Source of the DNA: Candidatus Tayloriibacteriota bacterium
GTDB taxonomy: Bacteria > Patescibacteriota > Minisyncoccia > Phycocordibacterales > HO2-43-120
NCBI GenBank assembly: GCA_039934295.1
Contig: JBDTMN010000003.1
Span: forward strand, 10,625-74,624
Direction of reading: 5' to 3'
DNA: 64,000 bases
Shown here: piece after piece, positions 32,789-33,164 of the stretch
Position numbering within the stretch: position 1 is the first letter of the stretch
How the letters are laid out: every line of letters starts with the position of its first letter
Notes under the pieces: generated by a model
Seen by the model: only the letters and a program-made list of their open reading frames with translations
Told to the model about the DNA's origin: nothing
Database searches by the model: none
Translations under genes and position numbers: made by a program

Positions 32789-33164
32789 TGCGGGGTAGAG
32801 AAGCAGTAACTCGCAAGGCTCAATTGGGCTCATAGGAGAGTAATTTCTTATGGATAACTCGTCAAATTCGGTGAAGCCTTCTTCGTAAAATACGAAATGG
32901 TAATACCGAGCCAAGCGCAAATTTTGTCCGCTTTAGGCGGTTACAAAATTGGGCGTCCGCCTAAGGCGGGCACTCAATCTTGCAACCACTTGGAGTGGGC
33001 AAGATTGGTGAAGGTGTAGAGACTAGACGGCGAGATCCGTTCAATGGAACGGAATAAGGTATAGTCCAGACTCCAAACTCTAATCCGCTTTGCGCGGACG
33101 AGATGATGAAAATCATAGTAGTATGCATAACCTTGAGGCGCCCGTGCAATTCGGGCCTCCGCAA
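32789..33164 (+). tRNA. tRNA(CAU) gene interrupted by a group I intron (exons 32789-32820 and 33126-33164)
   Basis: Exon 1 TGCGGGG-TA-GAG-AAGCAGTAA-CTC-G-CAAGG-CT; exon 2 CATAA-CCTTG-AGGC-GCCCG-TGCAATT-CGGGC-CTCCGCA-A. The acceptor (U1:A72) and anticodon stems are complementary. The spliced loop is CTCATAA. Confidence 0.65.
32821..33125 (+). ncRNA. Group I intron (305 nt, no ORF), IC3-like (cyanobacterial tRNA-Leu intron family)
   Basis: P1 GGCU/GGCU with U.G at the splice site; P3/P4-like CCGAGCCAAGCGC; R GGUGUAGAGACUAGACGG; P8 hairpin; S AAGGUAUAGUCC; P9 UCCGC-UUUGC-GCGGA; ends in G. Confidence 0.75.

Follow-up and report, generated by a model that had tools for sequence, protein, structure and literature searches.

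We analysed a stretch of 64,000 nt (hereafter ‘the window’) from the genome of Candidatus Tayloriibacteriota bacterium (assembly GCA_039934295.1, contig JBDTMN010000003.1, positions 10,625–74,624 of the forward strand). The window encodes CysRS, DnaB, SecY and other cellular genes and is a piece of a Patescibacteria chromosome, not of a phage. We regard it as highly probable that its segment 32789–33164 is a gene for the initiator tRNA (tRNA-fMet), split between U33 and C34 by a compact group I ribozyme of the IC3 type, with a putative nuclease partner encoded alongside in a separate open reading frame (ORF). The principal features of the locus are listed here; L132, named in the list, is a metagenome locus carrying an intron-less allele of the same gene.

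32789..32820, forward strand: 5′ exon of the initiator tRNA(CAU), comprising the acceptor 5′ strand, D arm, anticodon stem 5′ strand, C32 and U33 (ARAGORN with introns allowed; same sequence as the 5′ part of the L132 allele)
32821..33125, forward strand: group I intron of 305 nt between U33 and C34, last base G33125 (ARAGORN with introns allowed, Rfam, covariation)
33126..33164, forward strand: 3′ exon, comprising the anticodon CAU, anticodon stem 3′ strand, T arm (loop UGCAAUU), acceptor 3′ strand, A72 and A73 (ARAGORN with introns allowed; cloverleaf covariation; L132 allele)
32013..32696, reverse strand: free-standing ORF of 227 aa with an N-terminal helix-turn-helix (HTH) and one LAGLIDADG domain, divergent from the tRNA, its start 92 nt from the tRNA 5′ end
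31906..31981, reverse strand: uninterrupted tRNA(CAU) with G1-C72 (elongator Met or Ile2), ∼800 nt from the initiator gene (ARAGORN default mode, Rfam)
30775..31088, reverse strand: tRNA-Asp(GUC) with a 241-nt group I intron at 35/36 (intron 30814–31054; Rfam 43 bits, exon comparison)

With introns allowed, ARAGORN called tRNA-Met(cat) at 32789–33165 (+) with a 305-nt intron after gene base 32; the exons 32789–32820 and 33126–33164 of an initial annotation, made from the letters of the window and its ORFs, were thus reproduced to the base. CCA is not encoded at the tRNA 3′ end. The split locus was missed by ARAGORN in default mode and by Rfam at the gathering score, and it exemplifies the tRNA genes that such standard annotation overlooks.

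The strongest check on the exon boundaries is a natural empty site. At 6332–6403 of L132 (metagenome contig Ga0155227_134) there is an uninterrupted tRNA gene that equals exon 1 plus exon 2 of the window with 100% identity. L132 has the same cluster of tRNA-Asp (with intron), tRNA-Met and tRNA-fMet, with a spacer of 398 nt, and carries neither the fMet intron nor the LAGLIDADG ORF. The identity to this uninterrupted gene, along with a cloverleaf supported by covariation (see below), makes the joined exons a functional-looking host gene. A group I intron in a tRNA(CAU) gene, preceded by U and ending in G, as initially annotated, is borne out by ARAGORN, Rfam, covariation and the L132 allele together.

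Host, fold and class of the intron

Homologues were collected with the pattern GTAGAGACTAGA...TATAGTCC, scanned in one genome per species. The scan produced at least 120 loci, mostly from metagenome-assembled genomes of Patescibacteria (taxon labels as deposited); among the 120 loci listed, ARAGORN found 108 intron-containing tRNAs. Eighteen homologous CAU pre-tRNAs, picked via this core-motif pattern, were aligned with that of the window (19 sequences, 463 columns).

Bacterial initiator tRNAs are recognized by an unpaired 1:72 position, A11:U24 and G-C pairs at the base of the anticodon stem. In the alignment the cloverleaf of the joined exons is 94.5% paired. Position 72 is A in all 19 sequences, position 1 can be any of the four bases, and the 1:72 pair is missing in 15; A11:U24 is present in 17, and A29:U41, G30:C40 and G31:C39 are invariant. 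The acceptor stem GCGGGG/CCCGCAA agrees, we take it, with that of the Escherichia coli initiator tRNA. The host of the 33/34 intron is the initiator tRNA, even though its 29:41 pair is A:U. It is improbable that the host is instead an elongator tRNA-Met or a tRNA-Ile2 (with lysidine). Such a host would be compatible with the anticodon CAU, common to all three tRNAs, with the weak U-A pair found at 1:72 in this genome in place of a mismatch, and with an anticodon stem in which one of the three canonical G-C pairs is absent; it is contradicted by A72 throughout next to a variable position 1, by A73 and A11:U24, by the distinct G1-C72 tRNA(CAU) in the same cluster and by the literature, where the class bears the name fMet 33/34. 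The initial annotation had left the choice between Met and Ile2 open; its tRNA(CAU) stands and is narrowed to the initiator by A72, the free position 1, A11:U24 and the literature class. Its remark that such a host is notable does not hold, since fMet 33/34 is already a classical site and figures in the literature as a standard one for introns.

The elbow of this initiator tRNA is non-canonical, with a T loop UGCAAUU (33145–33151; G55 for U55) and a D loop AGCAGUA (32802–32808; A18 G19 for G18 G19). The two states covary perfectly in the 19 homologues, GG occurring with UUC and AG with UGC, and the G55 form of the T loop is common to at least 120 intron-less initiator genes from metagenomes. 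These observations suggest that one Patescibacteria clade has exchanged a G-U for an A-G tertiary pair at 18:55.

The fold of the intron was assessed by projecting a hand-built structure of the window intron onto the alignment and counting pairs, with the 3′ partners slid by 1–3 columns as a control. The proposed helices are 87.8% paired, compared with 32–43% when slid, and 29 of the 56 helix pairs show changes on both sides. The group I core proposed in the initial annotation has thus passed the covariation check: it runs from P3 to P9 and includes the P3/P7 pseudoknot. The helices, all on the forward strand, are as follows.

32817–32820 (exon GGCU) with 32827–32830 (internal guide GGCU): P1, 4 bp, 6-nt loop CAAUUG
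32831–32837 with 32846–32852: P2 hairpin, conserved loop GAGUAAU; 7 of 7 pairs covary
32858–32863 (CUCGUC) with 33029–33034 (GGCGAG): P3, in a pseudoknot with P7
32868–32873 with 32904–32909: P4 (P4 and P5 together 95.3% paired)
32876–32878 with 32899–32901: P5
32882–32886 with 32892–32896: P5a; 5 of 5 pairs covary
32910–32911 with 33014–33015: P6, bearing a long genome-specific extension
33019 and 33021–33025 (5′ strand G(A)GACUA) with 33062–33067 (UAGUCC): P7, with a bulged A; the expected guanosine-binding helix
33036–33042 with 33047–33053: P8 hairpin; 5 of 7 pairs covary, 62% paired, in a poorly aligned region
33070–33074 with 33118–33122: P9 closing helix, 88% paired, with CG/UA covariation
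about 33078–33101: P9a hairpin, enclosed by P9
33103–33107 with 33112–33116: P9b with a GAAA loop at 33108–33111, 95.8% paired; every pair covaries

P1 is 98.7% paired in the 19 sequences, with the final pair alternating between GU and GC; the U33-G wobble that marks the 5′ splice site was scored as invariant in the 19 sequences when group I membership was assessed. P3 is 99.1% paired, and four of its six pairs covary (CG/UA and others). The terminal G33125, expected at a group I 3′ splice site, is invariant in the alignment. The structural details of the initial annotation largely survive: the 4-bp P1 with its 6-nt loop, the P9 hairpin (P9b) and the terminal G are where it had put them, and the core strings it quoted are found at 33013–33030 (GGTGTAGAGACTAGACGG) and 33056–33067 (AAGGTATAGTCC). 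The string CCGAGCCAAGCGC, which it read as P3/P4-like, is indeed present at 32906–32918 (+), but it consists of the P4 3′ strand plus P6.

The P6 extension (∼87–100 nt, 32912–33013, +) is absent from all 18 homologous introns, and the intron is ∼70–100 nt longer than its relatives. By itself the extension has a stable fold, either a long hairpin or a branched stem (−58.4 kcal/mol, z −7.1). It holds three similar small hairpins of the UCCGC-UUWR-GCGGA type, and a fourth occurs in P9a; together they make one long stem.

Several points count against the reading as a group I intron. P7 is invariant in the alignment and was partly selected by the search pattern, and is thus uninformative; P10 is weak, about 2 bp; and the Rfam model Intron_gpI (RF00028) matches 32811–33089 at 48.3 bits, below the curated gathering cut-off of 50 (E-value 1.7e-10 for a 3.3-kb stretch, 3.2e-9 for the whole window on both strands). 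Close homologues without the P6 insertion score 54–67 bits, and the shortfall is probably due to this insertion of ∼87 nt. The same low score, the large genome-specific insertion and the non-canonical T loop might be taken as signs of a decaying pseudogene or of an intron past splicing. We consider decay extremely improbable: the insertion sits in a peripheral loop and folds independently, every core pair is intact, the odd T loop is kept in the intron-less genes mentioned above and covaries with the D loop, and the exons are those of the intron-less allele.

On the established mechanism of group I introns, splicing is predicted to proceed as follows. A promoter about 10 nt ahead of the tRNA would drive transcription of the precursor; the exon end GGCU would pair with the guide GGCU to form P1, with the U-G wobble at the splice site, and the core would fold into P3–P8 (the P3/P7 pseudoknot and P4–P6), joined by the P9 domain with its GAAA tetraloop. 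Free guanosine bound in P7 would then cleave after U33, the terminal G33125 would replace the guanosine, and joining of the exons would restore the anticodon loop CUCAUAA. A related Patescibacteria tRNA-Asp intron does splice in vitro.

Concerning its class, the intron lies between U33 and C34 of an initiator tRNA, as do the members of fMet.2Ug (U-1, terminal G, U33/C34), one of the four classical classes of bacterial tRNA introns, all of which are listed as IC3. Its architecture is that of IC3: a compact core, P2 present, neither P5abc nor P7.1/P7.2, and a GAAA tetraloop in the P9 domain, with a single hairpin (P8) between P3′ and J8/7 and with short P5 and P5a. Bacteroidota fMet introns and Acidobacteriota Ile2 33/34 introns, typed as IC3, share with it the strings GUCAAAUUCGG, GAGCCAAG, GAAGGUGUAGAGACU, AGUCCAGACCACAA and GUGAAAAC-GUAG, and the P3-J3/4-P4, P4′-P6, J6/7-P7-P3′ and 3′-terminal domains are nearly alike. 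Over shared columns the fMet intron is 58–66% identical to the typed IC3 introns and 49% identical to the single IA3 example, a small margin; local pairwise alignments to typed introns score 12–33, with shuffled maxima of 16, and comparison of the motifs told more about the subgroup than either measure. Class membership, architecture and shared motifs, as distinct from a formal classifier, support the designation IC3-like, so the initial ‘IC3-like’ label fits. A published survey, which placed no Patescibacteria tRNA intron in subgroup IC, speaks against it (PMC13011429).

The intron is of a classical, long-known kind and is ordinary when taken alone, one more classical copy in a phylum whose tRNA genes have turned out to harbour introns commonly. 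An IC3-like fMet lineage in Patescibacteria went unrecorded by that survey, limited to complete genomes, and the phylum has been reported as devoid of IC tRNA introns.

The second group I intron of the window, 1.7 kb away, was placed by ARAGORN at position 33/34 of a tRNA-Ala(UGC). It belongs instead to tRNA-Asp(GUC) and lies between U35 and C36 of the loop CUGU/CAC, an exon structure common to 25 homologues; Ala(UGC) is a documented ARAGORN miscall, and a related Asp intron was excised at 35/36 in an in vitro splicing experiment (PMC13011429). According to the initial annotation, the two introns are recent local copies of one intron that spread to two tRNAs of the locus. Both do contain the R and S strings (GUAGAGACUAGA and UAUAGUCC), and in both P1 has 4 bp and a 6-nt loop and P9 a GAAA loop. 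Strings R and S, though, are found at the 120 or more loci of the pattern scan, in introns of many tRNAs. When the two introns were aligned to each other, as a check on common ancestry, they were 44% identical over shared core columns and aligned only at the universal core; as each other's neighbour they rank 96th and 112th among 126 introns. The Asp intron falls among tRNA-Asp introns of other genomes, with 83–85% full-length identity to them, and the fMet intron falls among fMet introns; the insertion sites differ as well. The Asp/fMet tRNA pair is syntenic in L002, L010, L064, L090, L127 and L132, and the cluster of Asp, Met and fMet, including the uninterrupted tRNA(CAU), is seen also in L123, L125, L126, L127, L129 and L132. 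In these loci either intron occurs independently: L002, L010, L064, L090 and L127 have both, L123, L125 and L129 have the fMet intron only, and L132 has the Asp intron only. A recent local duplication is thus very improbable, and the introns are close to each other because an old tRNA cluster hosts two separate, host-specific intron lineages.

In E-value mode, the Rfam Intron_gpI model detected no group I intron in the 64 kb other than the fMet and Asp copies. Further ARAGORN intron calls made at low stringency in the window lie inside long ORFs, have no Rfam support and were rejected as false positives.

The tRNA-Asp of the same clade (window 30776–30813, reverse strand; L002, L003, L010, L043, L055 and L090) has its own unusual elbow, with a T loop GUCAGCA, in which G54 and G58 replace U54 and A58, and a short D loop AACGGUA. 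Elsewhere in Patescibacteria the T loop of tRNA-Asp is UUCAAGU, combined with AACUGGUUA.

The neighbouring HTH-LAGLIDADG gene

The protein of ORF 32013–32696 is 100% identical to the NCBI entry ‘hypothetical protein ABI430_01270 [Candidatus Taylorbacteria bacterium]’. Its C-terminal half carries the motif GLALYWGEGYK, with an acidic residue, Glu108, at the end of the LAGLIDADG helix. A family profile built from 19 relatives aligns to the second LAGLIDADG motif of I-DmoI (E-value 1.8e-4), with Glu108 opposite the motif Glu, which we take to be the catalytic E117. E108, G109, K111 and N121 are invariant in 61 homologues, and the acidic residue is conserved accordingly. The AlphaFold model made with these 61 homologues has a mean pLDDT (predicted local distance difference test) of 89 and shows the LAGLIDADG alpha/beta fold. 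The family comprises at least 417 clusters (at 50% identity) at E-value ≤1e-30 and 3,349 at E-value ≤1e-10; its source names are all ‘hypothetical’ or ‘HTH’.

The spacer between the ORF and the tRNA contains two promoter-like sites placed back to back, both found by a consensus scan only.

32751..32779, forward strand: promoter-like site TTGATT-17-TATCAT, its end 10 nt away from the 5′ end of the tRNA
32748–32721, reverse strand: second promoter-like site, facing the ORF

Relatives of the ORF occur repeatedly beside tRNA introns. A tBLASTn search of the 120 listed intron loci revealed relatives in 17, each beside an intron-containing tRNA (fMet, Asp, His, Tyr or Ser). Among the fMet-intron loci with enough flank, the window included, the ORF is present in 8 of 17, usually divergent and 72–118 nt from the tRNA 5′ end. 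In look-ups that started from the protein, eight of nine members adjoin an intron-containing tRNA. The close homologues on long contigs, chosen by protein similarity, have without exception (7/7) an intron-containing tRNA(CAU) 79–114 nt upstream in divergent orientation. For the distant member L250 the gap is 76 nt, and ARAGORN called the intron-containing tRNA in question Thr(UGU) 33/34, a published miscall for Asn 35/36. For comparison, a metagenome scan for this type of tRNA provided at least 120 initiator genes without an intron, of which 84 have at least 900 nt of 5′ flank; any family match was found in four of the 84, and a tRNA-adjacent one in two. The difference between 8/17 and 2/84 gives a Fisher p of 4.5e-6, a value that overstates independence, as the fMet/ORF loci are phylogenetically related. 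The co-occurrence is that expected of collaborative homing, the nuclease gene keeping company with the ORF-less intron and missing from empty sites, with the counts ignoring kinship. In the literature searched we found no published description of an association between this ORF and tRNA introns, and the family looks new as an intron partner.

The ORF may thus be a free-standing homing endonuclease; fold, motif and co-occurrence make it a candidate. LAGLIDADG enzymes with a single domain act as dimers on near-palindromic sites, and the DNA of the anticodon stem-loop (CAAGG CTCATAA CCTTG) could be a site of this kind, which the intron would split near its centre. The intron itself has no ORF; the protein of ORF 32013–32696 would cut intron-less alleles of the initiator tRNA gene, and repair of the cut allele would copy the intron and the nuclease gene together, a process known as ‘collaborative homing’. 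More broadly, we tentatively propose, as a reading that may well hold but that we would stop short of calling probable, that the HTH plus single-LAGLIDADG family is the homing machinery of the ‘ORF-less’ tRNA introns of Patescibacteria, with each subfamily directed at the intron-less allele of one tRNA; the targets would be fMet, Asp, Asn, Tyr, His and Ser. The ORF nearly always accompanies an intron, introns often occur with no ORF beside them and empty sites have neither, which is the pattern predicted by the gain-and-loss cycle of homing endonucleases.

Observations of several kinds weigh against the nuclease reading. No curated LAGLIDADG profile matches the ORF protein, for which Pfam and NCBIfam return an HTH or nothing (in Pfam, the N-terminal HTH alone); weak or faint LAGLIDADG_3 marks occur only in neighbouring paralogues, and a Foldseek search of the ORF protein against the PDB produced no match. 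About half of the intron-containing fMet loci have no ORF. A family member also adjoins the fMet gene at two intron-less loci, full-length in L153 and truncated in L182, and L251, the exception in the look-ups that started from the protein, is a fused member of 560 aa beside an intron-less tRNA-Gln.

L251 (2501–4183 in KB907208.1, GCA_000381885.1) has two to three domain repeats and lies 44 nt upstream of this tRNA-Gln(UUG); its neighbour genes do not look Patescibacteria-like.

These points leave room for a real but immobile, vertically inherited intron beside an HTH-LAGLIDADG protein that is no nuclease: a WhiA-like regulator of tRNA promoters, a maturase or a case of conserved synteny. We find this possible though doubtful. 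The WhiA-like regulator or maturase is the main rival to the nuclease reading, and the evidence against it is both structural and genomic. Catalytically dead LAGLIDADG relatives usually have no acidic residue in the LAGLIDADG helix; here this residue, aligned with the motif-2 Glu of I-DmoI, is invariant. The ORF tracks the intron and not the tRNA gene, in the fMet counts and in the look-ups from the protein alike; its paralogues adjoin introns in at least five different tRNAs, and its presence or absence varies between lineages as close as those of L132 and the window. We also considered an IStron or an association with TnpB, and there is no such gene near the intron. We therefore retain the candidate homing endonuclease as the working interpretation of the ORF.

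ORF 31197–31721, which lies beside the Asp intron, was examined as a possible LAGLIDADG paralogue and rejected, as it matches no Pfam family and has no tBLASTn relatives in the intron loci.

Other features of the window

Downstream of the split gene, two structured elements were found.

33170..33205, forward strand: hairpin followed by a T run, resembling an intrinsic terminator, directly after the tRNA (sequence scan; fold)
33211..33378, forward strand: structured unit downstream of the terminator, in which the tRNA 3′ end recurs twice, first inverted and in part, then as a direct copy at 33357–33375 (repeats; fold)

The copies in the unit 33211–33378 can pair into a long closing helix (−94 kcal/mol, z −9.0). 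Such repeats of the tRNA 3′ end were not found at 24 other fMet loci, nor at the tRNA-Leu of the window (881–965), and they are specific to this genome and tRNA cluster. Behind each of the three clustered tRNAs its own 3′ end is repeated in this way, inverted and in part at first and then directly (33165–33378, forward strand; 30590–30774 and 31761–31905, reverse strand). The part copied is the T arm plus the acceptor strand, and a terminator hairpin precedes the copies after fMet and Asp. In each of the three units the copies can form a closing helix around a branched region of 100–170 nt (z −9.0, −8.6 and −3.6); the fMet and Asp units are laid out alike, with a small hairpin inserted at the same place.

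Elsewhere in the window, ARAGORN reports a ‘tRNA-???’ with a two-base anticodon at 50641–50731 (reverse strand), for which the Rfam tRNA model gives no match. At 47070–47146 the same Rfam microRNA model is matched on both strands with 39 bits, far under the cut-off; this is probably a long perfect palindrome. A beta-CASP metallo-beta-lactamase RNase is encoded at 48387–49775 (reverse strand), its best NCBIfam matches being type VII CRISPR Cas14 (381 bits, cut-off 800) and archaeal aCPSF1. Two giant ORFs lie on the reverse strand, 13303–20817 (2,504 aa) and 35436–43880 (2,814 aa), the latter starting about 2 kb downstream of the tRNA cluster.

Comparison with known systems

The patchy distribution of bacterial tRNA introns is recognized in the literature as unexplained. 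In a 2026 study of Patescibacteria the mobility of the introns was judged to be limited because they have no endonuclease genes, and such genes were sought solely within introns (PMC13011429). If the partnership proposed here is real, it would overturn this immobility, inferred as it was from the absence of internal endonuclease genes; it would extend collaborative homing to cellular genomes and account for introns that are common yet patchy in very small genomes. It would also explain by a concrete mechanism how ‘ORF-less’ bacterial tRNA introns spread and persist, and define a new set of LAGLIDADG enzymes specific to tRNA genes.

The window intron resembles the classical fMet.2Ug IC3 intron in its initiator host, 33/34 site, U-1, terminal G and compact IC3-type core. 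The classical intron was first described in cyanobacteria, decades ago, and some of its copies encode the PD-(D/E)XK endonuclease I-Ssp6803I. In contrast, the host of the window intron belongs to Patescibacteria (Taylorbacteria), the intron has no internal ORF and a long genome-specific P6 extension, and the nuclease candidate is of the LAGLIDADG type and is encoded outside the intron. The Azoarcus tRNA-Ile(CAU) intron (Ile2.5Ug, IC3) has the same anticodon, subgroup, compact size and GAAA loop in P9, and its R element GGUGUAGAGACUAGACGGC is, presumably, near-identical to that of the window intron, but it interrupts tRNA-Ile2 at 36/37, whereas the window intron interrupts the initiator at 33/34.

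The introns of the 2026 study come from the same phylum. They include Met(CAU) 33/34 introns in two Microgenomatia genomes and the tRNA-Asp 35/36 type, which is found here 1.7 kb away from the fMet intron (PMC13011429). The core of the two Microgenomatia fMet introns is different, however (CUAUAUCGG, CGAGGGAAG and AGACUACACGCC), and the window intron differs from the introns of that study in looking IC3-like and in having an adjacent free-standing LAGLIDADG-like gene.

The protein of this gene differs from the single-motif LAGLIDADG enzymes of the I-CreI and I-CeuI type, from I-DmoI and from their inactive relative WhiA in having no Pfam LAGLIDADG match. Unlike in those LAGLIDADG proteins, its N terminus is an HTH and its gene is free-standing, not encoded within an intron or intein.

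A parallel to the arrangement as a whole is found in phages, where collaborative homing involves an ORF-less intron, a separate endonuclease gene and an intron-less allele that is cut at the insertion site (PMC3984707). As with F-CphI and the psbA intron of a phage, or mobE and the nrdB intron of T4, an ORF-less intron here stands beside a separate putative endonuclease gene (PMC3984707). The phage enzymes F-CphI and mobE are Endo VII-like or HNH and are associated with protein-coding genes of phages, whereas the window combines an HTH with LAGLIDADG, in a cellular genome and at tRNA genes.

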